This document shows positions 1-47,957 of a DNA stretch of 51,341 nucleotides, piece after piece. The DNA lies in contig JALOQK010000009.1 in NCBI GenBank assembly GCA_025453395.1, positions 1-51,341 of the forward strand. Reading direction: 5' to 3'. Source of the DNA: Candidatus Omnitrophota bacterium. GTDB lineage: Bacteria; Omnitrophota; Gorgyraeia; Gygaellales; Profunditerraquicolaceae. Made by a program: the position numbers and the translations under genes. Positions within the stretch are counted from its first letter, which is position 1. The number at the start of each line of letters is the position of its first letter. The notes under the pieces are model-generated. The model saw nothing but the letters and a program-made list of their open reading frames with translations. It was not told where the DNA came from and did no database searches.

Positions 1-98
1 TCTTTGTTGGTCTGATAACTTACAAAGTAACAGGTTTTCTTTGATCTGTGGAGCTTTTTTATTTATTCCCTTTGTCGCACTTTAGTTTACAATCTTCT

Positions 99-310
99 AG
101 CTGTAAGCTGTAAGCTATAAGCTATAAGCTAAATCATAAGAATGAGTAGTGAGGATGAGTAATGAGGTTAGCATGAGAATTAGGTTGAGGAAAAAATTTA
201 AAGATTTTTCCCATACCTGACCCTCACCCCAAACCCACAACCCATAACTCACAACTGACCCTTATAACTTATACTTTTACCTTTTGACTTTTTCCTTTTT
301 ACTTTTATAA
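99..310. repeat. heptamer-periodic composite palindromic element (~30 units of 7 nt)
   Basis: Tiles in one register: AGCTGTA x2, AGCTATA x2, ..., ATGAGNN units, an AT loop, AACCCAC/AACTCAC units, then CTTTTAC/CTTTTGA units. Confidence 0.9.
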
Positions 311-2577: not shown

Positions 2578-2710
2578 GCGTAAAGTGTAAAACGCAAAGC
2601 GTAAAACTATAGCGTAAAATTAAAAGTTTTGAATTTTAAATTATGGTTTTACGTTTTTCGCTTTCAGTTTTTAGCTGACGGCTAATGGCTGACAGCTGAT
2701 AGCTGCTGAT
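2578..2710. repeat. heptamer-periodic palindromic element (GCGTAAA family plus GCTGACG family; 19 units)
   Basis: GCGTAAA GTGTAAA ACGCAAA GCGTAAA ... TTTTGAA TTTTAAA ... TGACGGC TAATGGC TGACAGC TGATAGC, all in one register. Confidence 0.9.
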
Positions 2711-3936
2711 TCTCCTGCTAAATATCCGGTAGAAAAAGCCGCCTGCAGGTTAAAGCCTCCTGTATCGGCATGCACATCCATGATTTCGCCGGCAAAATAT
2801 AATCCCTTAATAAGGCGCGATTCCATATTCTTAGGGTTGATATCCTTTAATGACACGCCCCCCCTTGTCACCATTGCCTCATCAAAAGTACCGGCAGAAG
2901 ACACTTCAAAAGAAAAATCTTTCAAAACCTGAACAATGCGCGCGCGCTCTTTTTGAGTAACGTAACTGGCCTTTTTAGAAGCATCAATGGAGTTCATCTC
3001 TAAGAACACATCCACTAATCTTAAAGGCAGCAACGATTTCATAATATTGCGTAAGCTGGTGCGATTATTCTGCCCTAATTCTCTTAACATGCGCTTATCC
3101 AGGATTTCATAACTTAAGGCTGGCTTTAAATCTATGTGCACAAAAACCGGCTCTTTTTTTTCCAGCCACAAAACAATCCTGTCGCTTAAGGTAACAACCA
3201 ATGGCCCGGAAATGCCTTTATGCGTAAAAAGCAAATCCCCGATTTCTGAAAGGATATTTTTTGCCCCTTGAGTGAATTTTATCCTGATATTCTCAAGGCT
3301 TAACCCCTGTAAAATAACAGGATACCCTTTTTTTAATTCTAACGGAACTAAACTTGGCCTTAGCGGCTCTATACGGTGAGCTAATTTTCCAGCTATGCGT
3401 ATGCCATCTCCAGTTGAGCCAGTAGCAGGATAGGAAACTCCCCCTGTAGCAAGAATTACCTTCTGCGCTGGCAGAAATTCTTTTCCGGAAAGAATCACTA
3501 ATTCTGGCCTGCCATCTTTAATCTGGATGCCTTCCACGGTCCTGTTCAGGATAAATCTTATTTTTCTATCGCATACCTGGCTTAAAAGAGTATCCCAGAT
3601 ACTTTTTGCAGAATTACTCCTTGGGAAAACACGTTCCTGACGCTCTACTTTTAGTTTTACCCCGAGTTTTTCAAAAAACTGCATTAGGTCTTGGTTGGAG
3701 AATTTCTTAAAGGCATCGCGCAGAAAATCCCCTCCATGAAAAAACTTAGGGATAAAATCTTCCATCGGGATAGAATTGGTAAGATTGCATCTTCCTTTGC
3801 CGCTTAAAAGTATTTTCTGGGCGGGATGCTTGTTTTTTTCTATTAAAATAACCTTGGCGCCAAGTTCGCTGGCGCGGATACTTGCCATAAGGCCTGCAGG
3901 CCCAGCGCCAATAACAATAATTTCTGAATTAGACAT
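2671..3936 (-). CDS. FAD-dependent oxidoreductase, HI0933/YhiN (BaiN-like) family
   Basis: N-terminal VIGAGPAGLMAS dinucleotide-binding motif and C-terminal GGFNLQAAFSTGYLAG typical of the family. ATG at 3936 preferred over the upstream GTG at 3948. The last ~13 codons lie in the heptamer repeat. Confidence 0.85.
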   Translation of the reverse strand: MSNSEIIVIGAGPAGLMASIRASELGAKVILIEKNKHPAQKILLSGKGRCNLTNSIPMEDFIPKFFHGGDFLRDAFKKFSNQDLMQFFEKLGVKLKVERQERVFPRSNSAKSIWDTLLSQVCDRKIRFILNRTVEGIQIKDGRPELVILSGKEFLPAQKVILATGGVSYPATGSTGDGIRIAGKLAHRIEPLRPSLVPLELKKGYPVILQGLSLENIRIKFTQGAKNILSEIGDLLFTHKGISGPLVVTLSDRIVLWLEKKEPVFVHIDLKPALSYEILDKRMLRELGQNNRTSLRNIMKSLLPLRLVDVFLEMNSIDASKKASYVTQKERARIVQVLKDFSFEVSSAGTFDEAMVTRGGVSLKDINPKNMESRLIKGLYFAGEIMDVHADTGGFNLQAAFSTGYLAGESAAISCQPLAVS

Positions 3937-3970
3937 ATAGGCAATCACTCAACTAACTAAGGACAAATAT

Positions 3971-4112: not shown

Positions 4113-4679
4113 TTACCTCAATAAATCTTCTATCGTAAAAATGGATTCTAATTTAATCCCCGCTTGTTTTAAGTTTTCAACAGCTCCTTCATTTCTGTCA
4201 ACAATAACAACCGCTTTTACGATTTCAATGCCTTCTTTATCCAAGGCCTCTTTAGCTTCAATAACCGCCTTGCCGGTTGTGGCCACATCATCAACTACGA
4301 TTACCCGGGCACCTTTTTTAAGGGCCGGACCCTCAATTTGACGCTTGGCGCCATGTTCTTTAGCCGCCTTACGCACGATAAAAGTTTTTATGGGGTGATC
4401 CTTTATATAGCTGAAGCATGCCAGAGCTCCGACAATCGGGTCTGCCCCTAAAGTCGGGCCTCCAACAGCATCAATATTTTGATCATGGATAAGTTCCATG
4501 ATGATACTTGCAACCAAATACGCGCCTTCTGGGGTAAGAGTAATCACCCTGCCGTCTAAATAATAGGTGCTGGTCTTACCGGAAGACAAAACAAAGTTCC
4601 CAGTCTTAAACGCCTCTTTCTTAAGAAGCGCGAGTAATTCTTTTTTCAATTGATTCATATCTTTCTCTGGTAAACACAT
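4113..4679 (-). CDS. pyrE: orotate phosphoribosyltransferase
   Basis: PRPP-binding motif VIVVDDVATTGKA. Length and overall pattern fit PyrE. GGGAGG lies 6 nt upstream of the ATG. Confidence 0.9.
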   Translation of the reverse strand: MCLPEKDMNQLKKELLALLKKEAFKTGNFVLSSGKTSTYYLDGRVITLTPEGAYLVASIIMELIHDQNIDAVGGPTLGADPIVGALACFSYIKDHPIKTFIVRKAAKEHGAKRQIEGPALKKGARVIVVDDVATTGKAVIEAKEALDKEGIEIVKAVVIVDRNEGAVENLKQAGIKLESIFTIEDLLR

Positions 4680-4744: not shown

Positions 4745-4754
4745 CCCCATCTTT

Positions 4755-4806
4755 AGCTTAAAGCTTATAGCTTATAGCTTACAGCTTACAGCTTACAGCT
4801 GATAAG
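4755..4806. repeat. AGCTTAY heptamer array (7 units), inverse orientation of 99-130
   Basis: AGCTTAA AGCTTAT x2 AGCTTAC x3 AGCTGAT. Its reverse complement gives the AGCTGTA/AGCTATA units seen at 99-130. Confidence 0.9.
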
Positions 4807-4809
4807 TTT

Positions 4810-4838
4810 TTGACAAGTAGCCCTTTGATTGTTATGAT
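4810..4838 (+). promoter_or_regulatory. sigma70-type promoter: TTGACA-17-TATGAT, ATG 7 nt downstream (leaderless comF)
   Basis: TTGACA at 4810-4815 and TATGAT at 4833-4838. The ATG is at 4845 and no Shine-Dalgarno is present. Confidence 0.6.
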
Positions 4839-5579: not shown

Positions 5580-6674
5580 ATGAAAATACTGCGTAATTAT
5601 TTCCTCAAAGAATTCTTAGGCCCCCTGTTCTTATCGCTATTGGTACTTACCTTTATTATGCTTATCGGAAATCTGATCAAGATCACGGAACTAGTAATAA
5701 ATAAAGGTGTGGATATATTTACCGTATCCAAGCTCTTCTTGTTCATGATACCGTATCTTTTGACCTACACCCTTCCAATTTCAGCATTGACTGCTTCGCT
5801 TATGTCTTTAGGCAGGCTCTCTGGGGACAATGAGATTATCGCCATAAAAGCAAGCGGGATTAATATCTTCCGCTTGATCGTGCCGCAATTAATTGTCGGA
5901 GTGATCTTAAGCCTCTTTTTAGTCATCTTTAACGACCGGGTCATCCCTTACGCGCACTTTGCCTCTAGAAAAATGCTTGTGGAAGTCGGCATAAAAAATC
6001 CTGCCGCCGCCCTTGAGCCGGGAGTTTTCATTAATTCTTTCCAAAAATATGTGCTTTTTATTTATCGCATTGAAGAAAACAAGCTAATTAATATCCGTAT
6101 CTATGAGCCGCAGGAAGGAAAACCCACCCGCACCATTGTCGCTAAAAATGGGGAGTTTATAGTCCTGCCGGAAACTAACACCATAAAACTAAAACTTATT
6201 GACGGCACATCTGATGAGCCTGACCCGGAAAATCCGACCAATTTTTATAAACTTAATTTCAAAACTTATTTTATGAACCTTGATTTAGCGCAAATGCAAA
6301 AAAAATCTGATATCCAGAAGAAACCAAAGGACATGACCATCAAAGAACTGCAAAGTGAAATAGCAAGGCTTGAGAAAGAAAAAATAGACCCTGCGCCGCT
6401 TTTAACAGAGATAAATGAGAAAATCGCGCTTGCCTTTTCCTGCCTTGTGTTTATCCTGTTGGGTTCATCTACCGCGATCATTACCAGAAGAAGAGAGAAA
6501 AGCATAAATTTCGGGATTGCTTTTTTAATCGTGGGGCTGTATTACATTCTTTTGATCGGCTCCGAAGCGTTAAGCCTGCAAGGGTATATAAATCCCATGC
6601 TTGCCATGTGGTTACCCAATATCATACTTGGGACAGTTGGAGCTATCCTAACTTATAGGTTATGCGCATATTAG
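5580..6674 (+). CDS. lptF: LPS export ABC permease LptF (YjgP/YjgQ family)
   Basis: About 360 aa with three N-terminal and three C-terminal TM helices around a periplasmic domain. Paired with a paralogous downstream gene. Confidence 0.8.
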   Translation: MKILRNYFLKEFLGPLFLSLLVLTFIMLIGNLIKITELVINKGVDIFTVSKLFLFMIPYLLTYTLPISALTASLMSLGRLSGDNEIIAIKASGINIFRLIVPQLIVGVILSLFLVIFNDRVIPYAHFASRKMLVEVGIKNPAAALEPGVFINSFQKYVLFIYRIEENKLINIRIYEPQEGKPTRTIVAKNGEFIVLPETNTIKLKLIDGTSDEPDPENPTNFYKLNFKTYFMNLDLAQMQKKSDIQKKPKDMTIKELQSEIARLEKEKIDPAPLLTEINEKIALAFSCLVFILLGSSTAIITRRREKSINFGIAFLIVGLYYILLIGSEALSLQGYINPMLAMWLPNIILGTVGAILTYRLCAY

Positions 6675-7759: not shown

Positions 7760-8871
7760 ATATACACTCTGGGGATGCGGCTTCCTAAACCACAAACAAT
7801 TTCATAGGGTATTGTGCCGGATAAATTTGCCAGCTCTTCGGTAGTAATAGTATTCTTACCTTGAGACCCGATAAAAACCACTTCCTCGCCGATCTTTACC
7901 GTAGCGTTACCGACATCCACCATAATCTGATCCATGCAGATCCTTCCGCTTATCTTAAACTTTCTGCCGCCGATTAATACCGGGGCCAGATTAGAAAGAT
8001 TGCGCGGATATCCATCACCATAACCAATAGGAAGATTAACAATAGTAGAATTCTTGTCGGTAACATAGGTATAACCATAACTTATGCCATATCCTTTGGG
8101 CACGCGCTTAGCATAGACTATTTTTGATTTTAAACTTAACACTGGTTTTAGATTAATGGATAAGTTTTCATCCGGATAAAGCCCGTAAAGGACTAAGCCG
8201 GGCCTGACCATGTTAAAATGGCTTTGCTTGTAGGCGGCAATGCCCATACTATTTGCCGCATGCACAAGCGGGATATTTATTTTACTATGCTCTAACCTTC
8301 GTATTAAAGCCTCAAAGGTTCTGGCCTGATGCAAGGTAAAATCACGGTTAACATCCGCAAGGGACAAATGCGTGAAAATACCCTCTATCTCAAGCTGTGA
8401 TAGCCTCTTTAACCTGCACACAAAATCATAGGCCTGTTTGCATAAAACACCGAGTCTGCCCATGCCGGTATCTACTTTTACGTGCACCTTTACTTTGCGC
8501 GATTTAAGAAAAGCAGCCTTATTTAATGCGCGGGCAAAATCATAATCACAAAGCGTCTGGCTTAAATTGTATTTTAAGATAGGTGCAATATCGCCTTTAA
8601 GCGGCACGCCTAAAATAAGTATAGGCGACTTTATGCCTTTTTCTCTTAACAAAATCCCCTCGTCAATAGAAGCCACGCTTAGATAATCAACTGCCGAAGC
8701 TTCCAATTTCTTGGCCACAGGAATAAGCCCATGGCCATAGGCATCTGCTTTAACGCAAGCCATGACCTTAACATATCCTGGTATAATACTTTTAATCTCA
8801 AGCAAATTATGCTTAAGATTATTAAGATTAATTTCCGCCCATGTAGGACGGTACCCTATAGAGTTATGCAT
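7756..8871 (-). CDS. alr: alanine racemase
   Basis: PLP-lysine motif VKADAYGHG and N-terminal RPTWAEINL. Length 371 aa. Confidence 0.9.
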   Translation of the reverse strand: MHNSIGYRPTWAEINLNNLKHNLLEIKSIIPGYVKVMACVKADAYGHGLIPVAKKLEASAVDYLSVASIDEGILLREKGIKSPILILGVPLKGDIAPILKYNLSQTLCDYDFARALNKAAFLKSRKVKVHVKVDTGMGRLGVLCKQAYDFVCRLKRLSQLEIEGIFTHLSLADVNRDFTLHQARTFEALIRRLEHSKINIPLVHAANSMGIAAYKQSHFNMVRPGLVLYGLYPDENLSINLKPVLSLKSKIVYAKRVPKGYGISYGYTYVTDKNSTIVNLPIGYGDGYPRNLSNLAPVLIGGRKFKISGRICMDQIMVDVGNATVKIGEEVVFIGSQGKNTITTEELANLSGTIPYEIVCGLGSRIPRVYI

Positions 8872-8876
8872 AATTT

Positions 8877-9010
8877 TCAGCTTTCAGCTATCAGCTTTCA
8901 GCTATCAGCAAAACTAAAACCAAAACTAAAACCAAAAAAATAAAACTAAAAGTTAGTTTCGGTTTAGTATTTAGTTTTTAGCTGACGGCTGATAGCTGAC
9001 AGCTGACGGC
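8877..9010. repeat. heptamer-periodic long imperfect palindrome (19 units) between alr and tsaB
   Basis: TCAGCTT/TCAGCTA x4, then AAAACTA-type units, centre near 8950, TTTAGTT-type units, then CTGACGG/CTGATAG x4, which complement the first arm. Confidence 0.9.
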
Positions 9011-9681
9011 TTTCTTATTTGGCATTCCTTGGGATACAAATAAATCGGCTTTATCCCAAATGAATCCGTGAATTGCTTACACTGCAATTTTTCCTGCGCT
9101 ACCTGGACAAGATAACGCGGCTTAATCCCCCACCAATCCTTATCCAGAAAAAAGCTCTTATGGACAGAGGCCTGAAATTGTTTTTGATACAGAGAAAGCC
9201 CGTCCCCCACAAACAAACTGGGGCCTTTTATTTTAAGGCATAACTCTTCCGGAGTAACAAGCATATAATTTGACGATCTCTTAAAAACTTTGTGGTTTTG
9301 ATAAATAGCTGCGTAGACCATGCCTCGCCTGGCATCCATAACCGGAACAATCTGGATATTTCTTTCTTTGTCCGCTGCGGCTTTTGCCAAGACATCCAGC
9401 CCGCAAAGCCCAATAACCGGCTTATCCAAAGAAAACGCGATGCCTTTTATAAACGACAAGCCAATGCGGATACCGGTAAAAGACCCGGGCCCCAGATTTG
9501 CCGCCAAATAATCCAAATCTTCCCATTCCCAATTAAGACTTGTCAGGATTTGTGACAAAATATGCGTAATATTCTCAGAAAGTTTTACCCCGGTATAAAG
9601 ACGGTATTCATAGATCTTTTCACCATCTAAAATACCCACAGAAAAAAAGTTAGTGCTTGTATCAATAGCAAGTATTTTCAT
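8971..9681 (-). CDS. tsaB: tRNA t6A37 threonylcarbamoyltransferase complex subunit TsaB
   Basis: ILAIDTS start and GPGSFTGIRIG motif. The last ~11 codons (PSAVSYQPSAKN) are encoded by the heptamer repeat. Confidence 0.85.
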   Translation of the reverse strand: MKILAIDTSTNFFSVGILDGEKIYEYRLYTGVKLSENITHILSQILTSLNWEWEDLDYLAANLGPGSFTGIRIGLSFIKGIAFSLDKPVIGLCGLDVLAKAAADKERNIQIVPVMDARRGMVYAAIYQNHKVFKRSSNYMLVTPEELCLKIKGPSLFVGDGLSLYQKQFQASVHKSFFLDKDWWGIKPRYLVQVAQEKLQCKQFTDSFGIKPIYLYPKECQIRKPSAVSYQPSAKN

Positions 9682-10175: not shown

Positions 10176-11031
10176 CTTGGTTATTTAAAATAAGCTTTAT
10201 TCTTTCCTTCAAACAATTTATTTCACCAATAGGGTAAAAACAAAATTTATCCTGACGCATAAGTTTCTTGGCGCAATCAGAGTCCACAGTAAACAATAGC
10301 TCAAAATCCTCTCCATCTGTCAAAGAAGCTTTAAAATCCTTGGCCTGACTGGATACGGGAACAAGGTCCTGATAAAGCACTGCCCCTTTTTTACTCTGCT
10401 TTAAGATGTGGCCTAAGTCCTGGAGAAGGCCGTCAGAAATATCAATCATGGAATGAACCTTAAAATTCTCGGCTAAAAACCTTGCCTCTTTTAAGCGCGG
10501 GATAAATTTAAGGTGCTTTCCCTTGATTGATCCGCCTAAACTGCCGGTAGTAAAAATAATGTCCTTGTCGCGCGCTGCGCTTCTTAAAACAAGGCTATTC
10601 TTTTCAACCCTGCCGATCATACTTACATCTATAACTACTTTTTGGCTTTTGCTGATATCGCCTCCGACAAGATTTACTCCATACTCTTTACATGCGGCAA
10701 TAATGCCTTTGGTCAAACGGTCAACTTTATCAAGCGAAAGATCTTTTGGCAGGCCTAAAGAAATAACACAATGCTGCGGGACACCACAACAAGAAGCAAT
10801 GTCGCTTATAGAAACACAAACCGCTTTTCTGCCTACCCAATAAAAATCTGTGCCTTTTAAGAAATCCACGCCCTCTACAAGCATGTCACAAGTAAAAAGC
10901 TGGTATGATTTTTTGTCAAACTCTAATACCGCGCAATCATCGCCAGAACCAACGATAACTGATGTATCGGTTTTAATAGATTTCCTGATCCTATCTATCA
11001 AACCAAACTCGCCCAGCTTACTTATCTGCAT
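10135..11031 (-). CDS. thiL: thiamine-monophosphate kinase
   Basis: AIR-synthase-like fold motifs: GEFGLIDRI, GDDCAVL, DISDGL. Confidence 0.85.
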   Translation of the reverse strand: MQISKLGEFGLIDRIRKSIKTDTSVIVGSGDDCAVLEFDKKSYQLFTCDMLVEGVDFLKGTDFYWVGRKAVCVSISDIASCCGVPQHCVISLGLPKDLSLDKVDRLTKGIIAACKEYGVNLVGGDISKSQKVVIDVSMIGRVEKNSLVLRSAARDKDIIFTTGSLGGSIKGKHLKFIPRLKEARFLAENFKVHSMIDISDGLLQDLGHILKQSKKGAVLYQDLVPVSSQAKDFKASLTDGEDFELLFTVDSDCAKKLMRQDKFCFYPIGEINCLKERIKLILNNQDEKNIQPQGYRHF

Positions 11032-12061
11032 ATTTTTCTATGTTAAGTTTATATAACGGCTTGATAATTCCCCTGTCGGTAATAATCGCGGTTATTAAGT
11101 TATTAGGGGTTACATCAAATGCCGGATTCCAGAATTTTATTCCCTTGGCGGTAACTTGATTCTTAAAAAACAGGCTAGATACTTCTTCATGGCTTCTTTC
11201 TTCAATCAATATATCCATACCGGTTTTTATATCCAGATCAAAAGTGGAAAACGGCGCGGCAGCATAAAATGGTATCTTGTGATACTTTGCCAAAACTGCC
11301 AAGCTGTAAGTGCCGATTTTATTAGCAGTGTCCCCATTTAGGGCAATTCTATCCGCCCCGACAATCACCTTATCCACCGAACCGCTTTTCATAAGACTTG
11401 CCGCCATACTATCGCAGATAAGCGTAACATCAATACCGCTTCGTTTTAATTCCCAAGTGGTAAGCCGCGCCCCTTGTAAAAGGGGACGGGTTTCACAGGC
11501 AAAGACTTTTATATTCTTCCCCTGCTCATGGCTTTTATAAATTACGCCTAAGGCAGTTCCATAATCAATGGTCGCTAAGATTCCGGTATTACAAATAGTA
11601 AGAATGCGCTCATTTTTCTTAACCAGACTTGCGCCATAAGCGCCTATCCTGCGGCAAGATGCTCTATCCTCTTCTATAACCTTGTTTGCTTCCTGAAAAA
11701 GCGTCTTCTTTATTTTTTCTACTGACAAATGTTTAGCTTTATCAGAGACGCAAAGCATTCTCTCTAAACCCCAGAAAAGATTGCGCGCAGTAGGCCGTGA
11801 AGAAGCTAAATAATTAACCACTGATTTTAATTCTTTGTAAAATTGCGCGTAATCCTTGGCTTTGGAATCTTTAATCCCTAAATATACGCCTAAACAGGCG
11901 CTTGCGCCCAAAGCCGGTGCCCCACGCACCTTTAATTCCTTAATCGCCTGCCAAAGGACTTTGATATTCTTAATATCAATATACTTAAACTCTCCCGGCA
12001 AAAGAGTCTGATCGATCATGCGAATCCGGTTATTCTTCCATTCAATCGTACGAATACCCAT
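11018..12061 (-). CDS. mtnA: S-methyl-5-thioribose-1-phosphate isomerase (eIF-2B alpha/beta/delta family)
   Basis: VRGAPALGA and GADRIALNGDTANKIGTY motifs. ATG at 12061 has GGAGG 7 nt upstream. The longer ORF to 12106 starts at a GTG inside the repeat region. Confidence 0.8.
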   Translation of the reverse strand: MGIRTIEWKNNRIRMIDQTLLPGEFKYIDIKNIKVLWQAIKELKVRGAPALGASACLGVYLGIKDSKAKDYAQFYKELKSVVNYLASSRPTARNLFWGLERMLCVSDKAKHLSVEKIKKTLFQEANKVIEEDRASCRRIGAYGASLVKKNERILTICNTGILATIDYGTALGVIYKSHEQGKNIKVFACETRPLLQGARLTTWELKRSGIDVTLICDSMAASLMKSGSVDKVIVGADRIALNGDTANKIGTYSLAVLAKYHKIPFYAAAPFSTFDLDIKTGMDILIEERSHEEVSSLFFKNQVTAKGIKFWNPAFDVTPNNLITAIITDRGIIKPLYKLNIEKYADK

Positions 12062-12101
12062 ATTAATACCTCCATAATCACATGTTGTCACAAAGTCACA
12101 G

Positions 12102-12350
12102 ATCACAGGACATAATAAAGCGTAAAGCTAAAAGCGCAAAACTAAAAACTATAGCGTAAAATTAAAAACTTTTAAATCTTGAATTATGGTTTTACCTGCC
12201 TACCGGCAGGCAGGCCAAATAAATTCCAAATTTTAAATCCCAAACAAATTCAAAATCCCAAATCCAAAACTAGCGCGCAAAATCACAGGACACAATAAAG
12301 CGTAAAGCTAAAAGCGCAAAACTAAAAACTATAGCGGAAAATTAAGAACT
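12102..12350. repeat. two 69-nt direct repeats (period 180 nt) of the GCGTAAA family, flanking a GC hairpin and AAATYCC heptamers
   Basis: 12102-12170 and 12282-12350 differ at 3 positions. CCTGCC-TACC-GGCAGG lies at 12195-12210. AAATTCC AAATTTT AAATCCC ... lies at 12221-12270. Confidence 0.9.
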
Positions 12351-18224: not shown

Positions 18225-18416
18225 AGTTTCCTTAAGTCTGCTTTCTGGTTTTTGCTTCCGGCACTGATCCCGACGTAACGTCGGGACTAATGTGCCTCCA
18301 GCAAAAACCATCAAGAAATAATTAAACGCTGACAAACTTCCAGGTGTAATCCTAAAATCTTTTTAAATCCCCCAATCATTGTTTTTACAAATACCGAGGC
18401 ATGTTTCTCTGCCTTA

Positions 18417-18500
18417 AAAGCGCAAAGCTAAAAGCGTAAAGCGAAAAACTATAGTGTAAAATTTAAAACGTTTTGAGCTTTAAATTATGGTTTTACCTGC
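18417..18500. repeat. GCGTAAA-family element, fourth copy
   Basis: AAAAGCGCAAAGCTAAAAGCGTAAAGCGAAAAACTATAGTGTAAAATTTAAAACGTTTTGAGCTTTAAATTATGGTTTTACCTGC aligns with 2578-2653 and 12117-12199. Confidence 0.85.
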
Positions 18501-18509
18501 TAAAAATAT

Positions 18510-19913
18510 CTATAATTTCCTACGCCAGGTGGTGCCGTTTTTGGTATCCTCTAAAATTACGCCTTTTGCTTCCAAATCTTTTCTAATTTGGTCTGCTTCA
18601 GAAAATTTCTTTTCTTTCTTAAGCGCAATTCTTTTATCAATCAAAACTTTAATCGCGTCAGCATCATCTTCTAGTCCTTGCGCAGTAAAATCAAGTTTTA
18701 AACCCAACAAACCTGACAAATCCTTTAAAAGACTTCTAGCATGAGAGACAAAATAAGGATCATTGATATTTTTATTGGTTAAATTCACTAATTCAAAGAT
18801 ACTCGCCAATGCTTGAGGAGTATTAAAGTCATCATCCATAGCCTTGACAAAATCATCCTTAACTTTTTCTATCTGCGGTATCTTTTCTGACTTCCGGCTT
18901 CTGATTTCTGACTTCTGGCTCTCTATTTTCCCAAACAGTATCGAAATCCGTTCCAACGCTTGTTTTGCTTCGCTTATTTTCTCATCAGTGTAATCCATGG
19001 GGCTAGAGTAATGCGCGGATAAGAAGAATAATTTCAGGAAATCTGCGTTCTTATACTTATCCATAAAATCTTTTATGGTAATAAAATTCCCTGATGACTT
19101 TGCCATCTTCTGGCCGTTGATAGTCAATAACCCCCCATGCATCCAATATTTGGCAAAAGGCTTTTCCGTCAAGGCTTCTGCTTGGGCGATTTCATTCTCA
19201 TGATGCGGGAAAATTAAATCTCTTCCCCCTGCGTGAATATCCAAGGTGTCCGTCTTTAGAAACTTCTGGCTCATCACCGAGCACTCTATGTGCCAACCTG
19301 GCCTGCCCTTTCCCCAAGGACTTTCCCAAAACGGCTCATTTTCTTTTGATCTCTTCCAGAGCGCAAAATCTAAAGGATCTTTTTTGTGTTCTGATGGATC
19401 AATCCGGGCGCCAGTTTCCATCTCTTCTATATTCTGCCCCGATAATTTTCCATAATCAGGGAAACTTCTCACATTAAAATATACATCGCCTCCTGCTTCA
19501 TAGGCATGGCCTTTTTCAATCAATGCCTCGATGTATTTTATCATCTCCGGAATATTTTCCGTTGCCCGCGGCTCAAAATCCCCTCGCAGAATACCCAGGC
19601 TGTCTAAATCCTCATGATAACTTTTGATATATTTATCAACCAGTTCTTTCCAATCAGTTTTTAGTTCATTGGCGCGCTTGATGATCTTATCGTCTATATC
19701 GGTAATATTGCGCACAAAATTGACCTTAAAACCTCTATACTTTAAATAACGGCGGATAACATCAAAAATATACAGGCTTCTGGCGTGTCCTATGTGGCTT
19801 TGATCATAAACCGTTACTCCGCAGGTATAGATATTAACATTAGGAGGGCTTAAAGGAACAAACTCTTCTTTTTTACGCTCTAAAGAATTATAAATATAAA
19901 TCATAGTAGTCAT
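18510..19913 (-). CDS. cysS: cysteine--tRNA ligase
   Basis: HIGHARS and KMAKSSGN class-I signatures and the DDDFNT anticodon-domain motif. Confidence 0.93.
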   Translation of the reverse strand: MTTMIYIYNSLERKKEEFVPLSPPNVNIYTCGVTVYDQSHIGHARSLYIFDVIRRYLKYRGFKVNFVRNITDIDDKIIKRANELKTDWKELVDKYIKSYHEDLDSLGILRGDFEPRATENIPEMIKYIEALIEKGHAYEAGGDVYFNVRSFPDYGKLSGQNIEEMETGARIDPSEHKKDPLDFALWKRSKENEPFWESPWGKGRPGWHIECSVMSQKFLKTDTLDIHAGGRDLIFPHHENEIAQAEALTEKPFAKYWMHGGLLTINGQKMAKSSGNFITIKDFMDKYKNADFLKLFFLSAHYSSPMDYTDEKISEAKQALERISILFGKIESQKSEIRSRKSEKIPQIEKVKDDFVKAMDDDFNTPQALASIFELVNLTNKNINDPYFVSHARSLLKDLSGLLGLKLDFTAQGLEDDADAIKVLIDKRIALKKEKKFSEADQIRKDLEAKGVILEDTKNGTTWRRKL

Positions 19914-21144: not shown

Positions 21145-21870
21145 CTAATCCTTTCTTTTGATGATCTCTCCGGTGATAACCAAATCTTCGGCAGTTGTAA
21201 CTTTAATATTGCTATAAGCGCCTAAAACCATGCTGACCTTATGCCCTGTTTTCTCTACAAGCATAGCATCGTCGGTTACATCAAATTTACCGTACTTCTT
21301 GTACGCGCTTAAAATAATATCTTTCTTAAAGCCTTGCGGCGTCTGCGCCTCCCAAATGAGTTTTCTATCTAATGTTTTTTCTACGAGTATTTGATTCTGA
21401 ACTTTTGGATTTTTACTTATAATTTCTCCTTTTTCCTTTTTCCTTTTGACTTGTTTTATCGTCGCCTTAACCGGCACACCCGCCACTGCCGCCCCACTTT
21501 TTGAGACTTCTTTTAAGACCCGGCTTATAATTTCACCGGTTACAAAGGGCCTGCCGGCGTCATGAATTAAGACTATTTCTGAACAATTACTGACTTGACT
21601 CAATCCGCAAGCTACAGAATCCTGCCGCCTTAAACCGCCTAAAACTATTTTTCCCGCTTTATCTATCCGGTAACGACGAATAATCTTAAAAACTTCCTGA
21701 CAGATACGCTTATTGACTACGACAATAATTTCGTCTATGCACGGATGACGGTTAAATACTTCCAAAGAATAAGCCAATAGCGGCTTGCCGGATAATTTTA
21801 TTAAGGGTTTAGCTACGCGGGATTTCAGGCGCTTGCCTTTTCCCGCCGCGACAACTATTGCTGTTACCAT
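21145..21870 (-). CDS. ispD: 2-C-methyl-D-erythritol 4-phosphate cytidylyltransferase
   Basis: AAGKGKRL, HDAGRPF and AQTPQGF motifs. Carries a ~20-aa lysine-rich insertion encoded by a heptamer tract. Confidence 0.9.
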   Translation of the reverse strand: MVTAIVVAAGKGKRLKSRVAKPLIKLSGKPLLAYSLEVFNRHPCIDEIIVVVNKRICQEVFKIIRRYRIDKAGKIVLGGLRRQDSVACGLSQVSNCSEIVLIHDAGRPFVTGEIISRVLKEVSKSGAAVAGVPVKATIKQVKRKKEKGEIISKNPKVQNQILVEKTLDRKLIWEAQTPQGFKKDIILSAYKKYGKFDVTDDAMLVEKTGHKVSMVLGAYSNIKVTTAEDLVITGEIIKRKD

Positions 21871-34813: not shown

Positions 34814-34865
34814 AATATTATATATTTAGTTATAATACACTAATAAGTCAAAATATTATATCCTA

Positions 34866-34987
34866 TGTTCCCGGCGGTGTCAACCAATTAAAAAGCCCGC
34901 TGCGACACCCCCGCTCCCGACGCTGGCTTCGCCAGGCCGGGACTTCTAGGATCGCAGCTTCGGCTTGACGAAGAAGCGTGGGAACCA
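34866..34987. ncRNA. GC-rich structured element (unclassified; candidate small RNA or lysS leader)
   Basis: Visibly GC-rich island in AT-rich surroundings. The closing stem GTTCCC/GGGAAC encloses three hairpins (34876-34909, 34915-34942, 34958-34973). Confidence 0.3.
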
Positions 34988-35021
34988 TAAAAAAAGACCT
35001 CCGTATTTTAATACGCAGGCC
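34988..35021 (-). terminator. intrinsic terminator after htpX
   Basis: The minus strand reads CCUGCGUAUU-AA-AAUACGGAGG (one mismatch) followed by UCUUUUUUUA. Confidence 0.6.
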
Positions 35022-35049
35022 TTCATCTATCCTATTGAAAAGCAACTCT

Positions 35050-44096: not shown

Positions 44097-44364
44097 AAAA
44101 ACTCCTTTAAGCTTTATTTTTCAGCTTCTTGCGCCTTTTTGATATTAAAACTACGGCTTAAGTAATTCTAAATTTTGTTTTACTAATACGAGGCCTATAA
44201 CCAATTGTATTGCCAAGACTAAAATCATCAAAATATTGAAGCCCAAAGAAAAATGCTATCTTTAACTTAGAGCTTAACAAAATCCATTCTTCCCCTATAC
44301 TTTTTAAAATACATTATCTAATTTTATCATCCTATCTAACAGGAACAAGTAATATTTACGCGCC

Positions 44365-46170: not shown

Positions 46171-46325
46171 GTGTTATCTTTATGTTTACGCCCCGCGCTT
46201 ATTTGAATTGCGCGGGCGCATTGCTTTCTGCAACTACACCCGGCGCAATCTGATGCGCCGGTGTGTTGTCTTTCTGTTTACGCCCCGCGCTTATTTGAAT
46301 TGCGCGGGCGCATTGCTTTCTGCAA
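46171..46325. repeat. two 63-nt direct repeats (period 92 nt), each containing a GC-rich hairpin, separated by a third hairpin
   Basis: 46171-46233 and 46263-46325 differ at 2 positions. Each holds CGCCCCGCGC-N11-GCGCGGGCG. CCGGCGCA-N6-TGCGCCGG lies between them. Confidence 0.9.
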
Positions 46326-47637: not shown

Positions 47638-47655
47638 ACTTGCACCTCTAATCTA

Positions 47656-47684
47656 ATTTTACCACTGGTAAAATACAAAGGCAA
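47656..47684 (-). promoter_or_regulatory. candidate promoter of the Cys-rich-protein operon: TTGCCT-17-TAAAAT with an overlapping palindrome
   Basis: Minus-strand hexamers at 47684-47679 and 47661-47656. The perfect palindrome TTTTACCA-C-TGGTAAAA lies at 47657-47673. Confidence 0.45.
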
Positions 47685-47957
47685 TGAAAGAATCTTCAAG
47701 CTGCTGGTAAACTCATTAAGAGAGTAAAAATAAACAAACATTAATTTCTAATGCCTGGATTTTGACTTATTGTCAACGCCAGAAATATAATACCGCGATA
47801 ATGACGATACCGACAAGATAAAGCAAAAACGTGCCTGAAATAAAATAAAGTCATCTGCCTGTGTTAAACCAATACCTGCCATAAAGAAATGATATAGCGC
47901 TAAATGCTATTGTTTAAATTACAAACTTGAATTTATCATTATATAGCGCGTCTATAT

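Follow-up and report, generated by a model that had tools for sequence, protein, structure and literature searches.

How does an array of seven-nucleotide units come to lie in frame in the middle of a housekeeping gene, and what keeps it there? The question is raised by ispD, the gene for 2-C-methyl-D-erythritol 4-phosphate cytidylyltransferase, in a 51,341-nucleotide stretch of a Candidatus Omnitrophota bacterium genome (GenBank assembly GCA_025453395.1, contig JALOQK010000009.1; hereafter the window), where a heptamer tract lies in an enlarged loop of the enzyme. Drawing on the window, on 120 IspD homologues and on the ispD loci of relatives, we argue that the tract is probably a slippage-driven, non-triplet microsatellite that survives in frame because it lies in a permissive loop, and that it is most likely a neutral passenger. 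The analysis covers 51 kb of this genome and, for every relative, 5-20 kb; relatives' loci carry labels such as L001.

An in-frame heptamer array in ispD

The ispD open reading frame (ORF) occupies positions 21145..21870 of the minus strand and encodes 241 amino acids. PDB structures of IspD match its product over residues 2-237, the best being Arabidopsis 1w77 (E=5e-43); its best database relatives carry PF01128, and those with a named source come from Omnitrophota. Residues G10, R14, K21, T137, K139, T166, R169 and Q176-T177-P178-Q179 are invariant, and the gene order at the locus, radA, a PIN-domain gene, ispD, ispF, cysE and cysS, is the same on relatives' contigs.

Between T137-I-K139 and T166-L-D-R169 the protein reads ATIK QVKRKKEKGEIISKNPKVQNQILVEK TLDR, a loop of 26 residues. 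Within it lies a period-7 tract (21395..21450, minus strand) whose first codon is that of Val141 and which reads GTCAAAA GGAAAAA GGAAAAA GGAGAAA TTATAAG TAAAAAT CCAAAAG TTCAGAA; with eight phased units head to tail, where at least three make a heptanucleotide array, it spans codons 141-159 of 241 and is thus mid-gene. Tandem Repeats Finder (TRF) delimits the best-preserved core at 21423..21447, with period 7, 3.6 copies of TTTTTCC on the plus strand and 94% matches; beyond this core, degenerate units extend out to about 21395-21459, and the segment found by a sliding scan is 21409-21459. Alignment with HMMER to 1w77 opens a gap of 16 residues in the 10-residue Arabidopsis loop, opposite R143-Q158 of the window protein, so that 21397..21444 (minus strand) holds 16 codons in excess of the 10-residue loop of characterised IspD.

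The original prediction, made from the letters of the window, had reported a heptamer tract inside ispD and a loop of about 25 residues where about 10 are usual. The tract reads as described and is recovered by TRF with the same period at 21423-21447, and the lengthening holds: 26 residues here, 10 in Arabidopsis and 8-10 at delimited loci from outside the Omnitrophota.

The tract has none of the other signals that we sought. No inverted repeat was found in 21360-21500; the predicted RNA fold of the tract (-3.2 kcal/mol, z = -0.2) indicates no structure; a search inside ispD for promoter- or terminator-like signals gave none at the tract; and Rfam and tRNA scans across the window returned no matches.

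The periodicity belongs to the DNA and has a partner in a spacer

The period-7 identity of the ispD tract is 0.79 over 35 nt. Among synonymous recodings of the IspD peptide drawn with the genome's codon usage, 0.055% attain this value (P=5.5e-4), and among codon-order shuffles 0.005% do so (P=5e-5); because these nulls so rarely match it, the periodicity belongs to the DNA and not to the Lys-rich peptide.

A heptamer array of the same kind lies in an intergenic spacer at 261..310 (plus strand), where it reads CTTATAA CTTATA CTTTTAC CTTTTGA CTTTTTC CTTTTTA CTTTTAT. Among all 50-nt windows on both strands it is the best 7-mer partner of the ispD tract: the two have 18 7-mers in common, while the second-ranked stretch has 10. 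Both arrays contain the units CTTATAA, CTTTTGA and CTTTTTC on the same strand, in a different order. Two longer strings occur exactly at these two places and nowhere else: the 13-mer CTTTTTCCTTTTT at 288-300 and 21429-21441, and the 11-mer CCTTTTGACTT, for which 0.04 chance matches are expected, at 280-290 and 21442-21452. The 13-mer says little by itself, as with one mismatch allowed three sites are found against 0.96 expected and 10 of 100 shuffles also reach three. Both strings had been singled out in the original prediction, which also held that the tract matches a heptamer-array family of this genome and sits in frame in a gene of an essential pathway; both points hold, and the array at 261-310 is the best partner of the tract in the window.

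The array encodes a predicted coil at the tip of the beta-arm

An AlphaFold model of the window IspD, computed from a 50-sequence alignment, has a mean predicted local distance difference test score (pLDDT) of 93. In this model residues 139-143 and 161-166 form the strands of the beta-arm hairpin, and residues 144-160 are coil at its tip, with pLDDT of roughly 55-68 overall and below 50 at 149-152. The surface loop that had been expected at this place is consistent with the model, which puts the tract in coil at the beta-arm tip with pLDDT below 70. We take the beta-arm to interlock the dimer, as in E. coli IspD, and the residues of the T-I-K (T-x-K) and T-L-D-R (T-x-D-R) motifs on either side of the loop presumably contact the substrate there; taken together with the predicted coil, this role of the arm would place the insert at the one spot of the arm that faces solvent. 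The model thus points to a disordered loop in a permissive surface position.

Enlarged, quantised loops across Omnitrophota IspD

Relatives' loci were retrieved with an alignment query, a single-protein query having given just two distant loci, and loop limits were set by sequence pattern, with some loci delimited by eye or with tighter patterns. Non-Omnitrophota loci with a loop of definable limits (Bacillota, Dehalococcoidia, Nitrospirota and others) have 8-10 residues at this place, and period-7 arrays are almost absent from the non-Omnitrophota ispD loci retrieved. An insertion of the window's length in orthologues devoid of heptamer elements, or ordinary codon-position conservation along the tract, would have pointed away from a repeat origin; such orthologues have the 8-10-residue loop, and the evolution of the tract is unlike that of an ordinary run of codons.

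Among 120 IspD homologues of Omnitrophota type, loop length varies between 9 and 40 residues and is quantised, falling at 9-10, at a mode of 17 (10+7; 51 proteins), and then at 25-26, 33-35 and 40. A loop longer than 11 residues is kept by 103 of the 120 (about 86%), the other 17 being without an insert. Many of the enlarged loops bear the mark of a translated heptamer array. Some are visibly 7-residue periodic, for example VHSSKFIVHSS, VTSYQLPVTSK and VIGYRLSVIGE, and loops of 18 residues with an 8-residue period fit octamers. When 11-residue windows of the loop were compared with the peptide that a perfect heptamer array would encode over its three frames, 58 of the 120 loops gave at least 8 matches and 40 gave at least 9; of 7560 control windows taken from other parts of these proteins, 4 reached 8 and none reached 9.

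The peptides themselves are unrelated from one orthologue to the next (KRKKEKGE, VASCQLP, RGSGLGA and VHSSKFI are examples), and their composition runs from basic through Gly/Ser-rich to hydrophobic or Cys-containing, with no common motif. On a rough neighbour-joining tree computed from loop-masked IspD sequences, 14 state changes are required to account for the 17 insert-free homologues.

Unrelated arrays at one codon, and how they change

In the DNA of orthologues the loop is encoded by heptamer arrays of quite different units: four perfect copies of GTTGCCA in L012, two of GTTGCCA followed by two of GTCGTCA in L008, four of AAAATCA type in L016, GTTCGGG GCTCGGG GCTCGGG GCTCATG in L084, four of TCAGCTN, a unit type present also in the spacers of the window, in L086, and five of CAAATGN in L058, a locus labelled Margulisiibacteriota. 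These arrays start at one shared codon, that of the Val, Ile or Leu after ATIK-x, except that L058 starts one codon earlier. The original prediction was concerned with the ispD of the window. The in-frame array there is no isolated case: most Omnitrophota IspD homologues carry 7- or 8-nt arrays at that codon, and cysS offers a comparable case.

L001, an Omnitrophota genome, carries an octamer array in ispD (GTGCATAA, four copies) and a similar one (GTGTGTAA) in an intergenic spacer, the two sites being 3412-3460 and 6407-6455. The presence of octamers in both places indicates that an insert takes on the repeat period typical of its genome, and the use of 8-nt units by L001 that the preferred period differs between lineages.

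The syntenic relatives L084-L087, whose CysS is 76-79% identical to that of the window, have IspD loops of 16, 16, 17 and 10 residues, built from unrelated units; L087 is without an insert. In L084 and L085, whose ispD DNA is 92% identical, two neighbouring units of the array are set apart by an identical T-to-C change (GCTCGGG GCTCGGG against GCCCGGG GCCCGGG), which is a signature of concerted evolution within the array.

A second internal, in-frame array lies in cysS (18510..19913), at 18883..18921 of the minus strand, where AGCCAGA AGTCAGA AATCAGA AGCCGGA AGTCAGA encodes SQKSEIRSRKSE. This array is exactly 21 nt, or seven residues, longer than its counterparts in L084 and L085, where CysS has 77-79% identity. 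Of the 51 array-like peptide windows in 120 CysS homologues, 46 lie at this single site, some of them 8-residue periodic. The cysS site is a hot spot comparable to the ispD loop. Changes in unit number are thus visible among relatives, in cysS as a 21-nt step and in ispD as loops of 10, 16, 17 and 26 residues in syntenic genomes, and are not seen directly for the ispD array of the window.

Three further features of relatives' ispD genes stand apart from the arrays' length changes. In L085 (1311-2096) an in-frame insert of 24 residues, absent from L084, follows just after the glycine-rich loop and consists of two hairpins, TCCCGCC..GGCGGGA and CCCGACTC..GAGTCGGG; a hairpin with a TCCCGCC/GGCGGGA stem also occurs inside the loop array of L007, and a similar CTCCC/GGGAG one inside that of L083. 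From their sequence, these mini-inserts may represent a mini-element resembling the Rickettsia palindromic elements discussed below. L084 ispD (1926-2640) has an in-frame TAA at a conserved Leu codon (LVEK*GRKV), away from the array, and is either a pseudogene or affected by a sequencing error. L058 has heptamer arrays at 4382-4434 and 6632-6674, one in the IspD loop (CAAATGN) and one inside a second coding sequence (CDS); heptamer arrays may reach beyond the Omnitrophota, or the L058 ispD gene or bin may be of mixed origin.

Proposed origin: slippage in a permissive loop

How might such arrays arise and persist? We propose that this lineage generates tandem arrays of 7-nt units, or of 8-nt units in some relatives, mostly in intergenic DNA, and that the ispD tract would be one member of this population. 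Slipped-strand mispairing, or unequal exchange among the units, would lengthen, shorten and homogenise the arrays; we infer this from the excess of period 7 described below, the steps of 21 nt, the concerted unit changes and the agreement in period between the two L001 arrays. Within genes, survival would be limited to units free of stop codons in all three frames, and the reading frame would be kept solely by length changes of three units, which amount to 21 nt (7 residues) for heptamers and 24 nt (8 residues) for octamers. Under these two constraints selection would confine arrays to structurally permissive places. In IspD that place would be the tip of the beta-arm hairpin between T-I-K and T-L-D-R, where the array would be translated as a disordered loop with a 7-residue period. 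The window array would be an ageing example, with about 3.6 good GGAAAAA units and decayed units on its flanks, at a site that may have been a long-lived, fast-turnover hot spot across the phylum. The loop peptide itself we take to be neutral, because the peptides of orthologues are unrelated and the coil is modelled with low confidence.

Several observations weigh against this account. An exact-pattern scan of metagenome contigs for the flanks of the array separated by a variable gap gave 0 matches, and the closest IspD relative in the searched databases is 57% identical; copy-number instability is accordingly something seen in relatives' arrays and carried over to the window ispD array. Heptamer periodicity is kept at one codon, with left boundary and phase fixed, among IspD proteins of only about 50% identity, as it could be if the periodic DNA or RNA were itself selected, and an enlarged loop in about 86% of homologues could reflect an advantage of a longer arm. 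Slippage, moreover, is generic and does not account for the preference of this phylum for units of 7-8 nt. As neutrality does not fully explain the fixed boundary and phase or the high fraction of enlarged loops, we keep a nucleic-acid function and a longer arm as live rivals.

A bolder reading, which we consider unlikely but worth stating, is that the Omnitrophota possess an active, possibly lineage-specific process that makes and homogenises 7-8-nt arrays, or else a selected nucleic-acid function, and that one or the other has kept a non-triplet microsatellite alive at one codon of essential genes, at the IspD beta-arm tip and a CysS linker, since early in the history of the phylum. If it were true, essential genes would host functional or self-renewing repeat modules, and these genomes would offer a natural system for the birth of disordered loops de novo from out-of-frame repeats.

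Non-triplet microsatellites are usually expected to be purged from essential genes or to serve as on/off switches; here, throughout a phylum, housekeeping enzymes retain in-frame repeats of 7 or 8 nt whose units are read in all three frames. This would be a clear natural example of slippage writing disordered loops into conserved proteins in quantised 7-residue steps, and the arrays would serve as a marker for a repeat-generating process in the Omnitrophota of which we found no description. Because such loops are without residue-by-residue homology, they are also a warning for annotation and phylogenetics of these genomes, while the translated-heptamer peptide test offers a means of finding inserts of this kind in protein databases without the DNA.

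Alternative explanations

The alternative that survives best, although we think it improbable, is that the arrays are selected nucleic-acid elements, either sites for a protein that engages about 7 nt per domain (of cold-shock/OB-fold or S1 type) or structural or regulatory RNA, the loop being a by-product. The constancy of codon and phase despite the divergence of IspD is what such a function would produce; intergenic arrays abut start and stop codons, and some are paired as long inverted repeats (8877-8913/8970-9006); a composite array is present three times in the window and again just upstream of ispF in L083; and regulators of this sort were proposed for the TAACTGA repeats of Beggiatoaceae (MacGregor 2015, PMC4679880). 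Yet the ispD units of relatives are wholly different (GGAAAAA, GTTGCCA, G(T/C)TCGGG, TCAGCTN, AAAATCA) and some are 8 nt long, so that no common recognition sequence is apparent; the window tract has no partner arm, no predicted structure and no promoter- or terminator-like site; and the array is absent from L087 and from 17 of the 120 homologues.

More doubtful is selection on the protein, whereby a longer and here Lys-rich beta-arm would alter dimerisation, substrate access or partner binding and the DNA periodicity would merely record its origin. The prevalence of loops above 11 residues, with their strong mode at 17, fits this idea, as does the position of the insert between motifs that bind substrate in E. 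coli IspD. Against it, the loop peptides of orthologues have neither composition nor motif in common, AlphaFold returns a low-confidence coil, and loss and gain are frequent.

We give little credence to a contingency (phase-variation) locus in which gain or loss of a single heptamer would switch ispD off and on. The arithmetic is that of neuO in E. coli, where a full-length protein is made only from unit numbers that are multiples of 3 (PMC13001214), but the array does not have the attributes of that locus, a long perfect simple sequence repeat (SSR) at the 5' end of a dispensable gene: it lies mid-gene, is degenerate and, at 3.6 copies, is short beside the 3-53 units of neuO. The gene, moreover, is a single-copy member of the methylerythritol phosphate (MEP) pathway in a housekeeping operon (radA-PIN-ispD-ispF-cysE-cysS), where an off state would presumably be lethal, and cysS, which encodes an aminoacyl-tRNA synthetase, shares the feature. 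No frameshifted allele was seen (protein databases hold in-frame alleles only), and the defect in L084 is a point nonsense codon away from the array.

Finally, chance is hardly credible as an explanation. The tract would on that view be nothing more than a low-complexity Lys/Glu insertion peculiar to the lineage, with A-rich codons that look like a repeat and happen to have short strings in common with a T-rich spacer. The tract is indeed purine-rich and of low complexity, and the 13-mer with one mismatch is not rare in shuffles, but the recoding and shuffle nulls, the 11-mer expectation and the peptide test all speak against chance, and the perfect arrays of units that are not A-rich at the same codon of orthologues refute it.

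Comparison with known repeat systems

Heptanucleotide arrays of the short tandemly repeated repetitive (STRR) type are reportedly found in cyanobacteria, and surveys of bacterial SSRs are reported to show an excess of heptamers in some bacteria (Mazel 1990; Mrazek 2007). Both lines of work are cited in PMC4692102 and PMC4679880. The Omnitrophota arrays resemble these STRR and long-unit SSRs in their head-to-tail 7-nt units, low copy number, several unit families per genome and mostly intergenic position near gene ends, and slippage has been proposed for those as well; they differ in recurring phylum-wide at one codon position of a conserved enzyme and, in some lineages, in having 8-nt units.

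Precedents for in-frame heptamers, of which the original prediction was not aware, exist in two systems. The TAACTGA direct repeats of marine Beggiatoaceae (MacGregor 2015, PMC4679880) are mainly intergenic heptamers abutting start codons, but about 25 ORFs contain or overlap them, many at stop codons or protein termini, and encode the 7-residue repeat LSVISYQ in three frames. These overlaps with ORF ends parallel the C-terminal tails of tsaB and of ORF 2671..3948 in the window. There, however, a single unit is involved and nearly all in-ORF cases are peripheral in position or lie in hypothetical proteins, whereas here the units are many and unrelated and the arrays are internal to IspD and CysS, at a site common to many species. 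The second precedent is the heptanucleotide variable number of tandem repeats (VNTR) in NeuO of E. coli K1 (PMC13001214), which likewise places heptamers within a coding sequence, where slippage changes their number; it lies at the 5' end of a non-essential prophage gene, has 3-53 units and acts as an on/off switch, in contrast to the short, degenerate, mid-gene array of a housekeeping gene described here.

Tandem repeats of Borgs (PMC9879509) evolve fast, occur both between and within ORFs and extend existing proteins by intrinsically disordered segments, with the repeat at the same place in homologues; in these respects they resemble the arrays described here. All in-ORF Borg units are divisible by three, in contrast to the 7 or 8 nt found here, so that in the present case the frame survives only changes of three units at a time and every unit is translated in each of the three frames.

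The arrays would therefore not be new in kind: by analogy they appear to belong with heptamer arrays of STRR or TAACTGA type and with in-ORF heptamers of NeuO type. What is new is the phylum, the variety of units, the choice between 7- and 8-nt units by genome and the recurrent use of one codon position in essential enzymes. Our literature searches found no direct report of heptamer repeats in Omnitrophota, nor of in-gene heptamer arrays in cyanobacteria.

Rickettsia palindromic elements (RPE) are palindromic mobile elements of roughly 100-150 bp that lie in frame in conserved genes and are tolerated in surface-exposed segments. The original prediction likened the tract to them, as a repeat element that had colonised ispD. 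In-frame placement in a surface segment of a conserved gene is indeed common to both; the window tract, at 56 nt, is non-palindromic and unstructured, and hairpin mini-inserts resembling RPE occur just in relatives (L085, L007 and L083). With neither inverted repeat nor structure, an RPE-like mobile palindrome is excluded for the window tract. Nor does the tract look like a dispersed element, since it shares just the 11- and 13-nt strings with one other locus, with a different unit order. The idea of colonisation thus gives way to that of a microsatellite: without inverted repeat, RNA structure or defined ends, the tract behaves as one that expands and contracts in place.

Period-7 arrays across the window

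A sliding scan of the window found 12 period-7 segments against 0-2 for each of the periods 5, 6 and 8-14, and TRF agrees. Eight of the 12 are intergenic, though the window is about 93% coding; the other four overlap coding sequence (ispD, cysS and two C-terminal tails), where 0.015 are expected under a codon-shuffle null for the whole window. A search of other CDSs for period-7 tracts, proposed along with the original prediction, thus yielded within the window cysS, the tail of tsaB and that of ORF 2671..3948. Array units within genes, read in sense orientation, are free of stop codons in all three frames; several of the intergenic units contain stops.

The tsaB tail, PSAVSYQPSAKN* (8971..9016, minus strand), is read out of an intergenic AGCTGAC array, and the tail of ORF 2671..3948, AISCQPLAVS* (2671..2708, minus strand), out of an array of AGCTGAC type. 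A peptide of the PIN-domain protein that matched a heptamer-array translation at 9 of 11 positions was rejected as a chance match, because the underlying DNA has no 7-periodicity.

Both TRF and the scan also identified further intergenic arrays: period-7 arrays of AGCTATA, AATGAGT and ACCCACA units at 86..261, adjoining the array at 261-310; an AGCTTAC array of 6.6 copies at 4747..4812; a TCAGCTT/TCAGCTA array at 8866..8919, with an inverted counterpart at 8970-9006; two copies of an AAAGCGT AAAGCTA AAAGCGC AAAACTA array at 12115-12153 and 12295-12333; and an AAAGCGC AAAGCTA AAAGCGT array at 18415..18453. The intergenic arrays all lie within the first 19 kb, and spacers of the second half of the window (for example 34814-35049, 44097-44364 and 47638-47957) have none. 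A different repeat is found at 46178-46322, where a 46-nt unit is present in 3.2 tandem copies with a GC-rich hairpin (ACGCCCCGCGC...GCGCGGGCG); the spacer that holds it is 370 nt long, has no Rfam match and contains more hairpins.

The spacer between tsaB and the next gene (8872-9011) is built wholly of arrays arranged as nested inverted repeats, with outer arms 8877-8913/8970-9006 (37 nt, 81% complementary) and inner arms of CAAAAC type at 8910-8935/8953-8978, and could form a long hairpin. The two copies of the composite AAAGCGT AAAGCTA AAAGCGC AAAACTA array belong to a 70-nt direct repeat (12102-12171/12282-12351; 96% identical, 180 nt apart) that also includes the start codon of gene 11018..12106. 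This composite array recurs at 18417-18436, and a similar one lies in L083 (10749-10793) at the 3' end of ispD, just before ispF.

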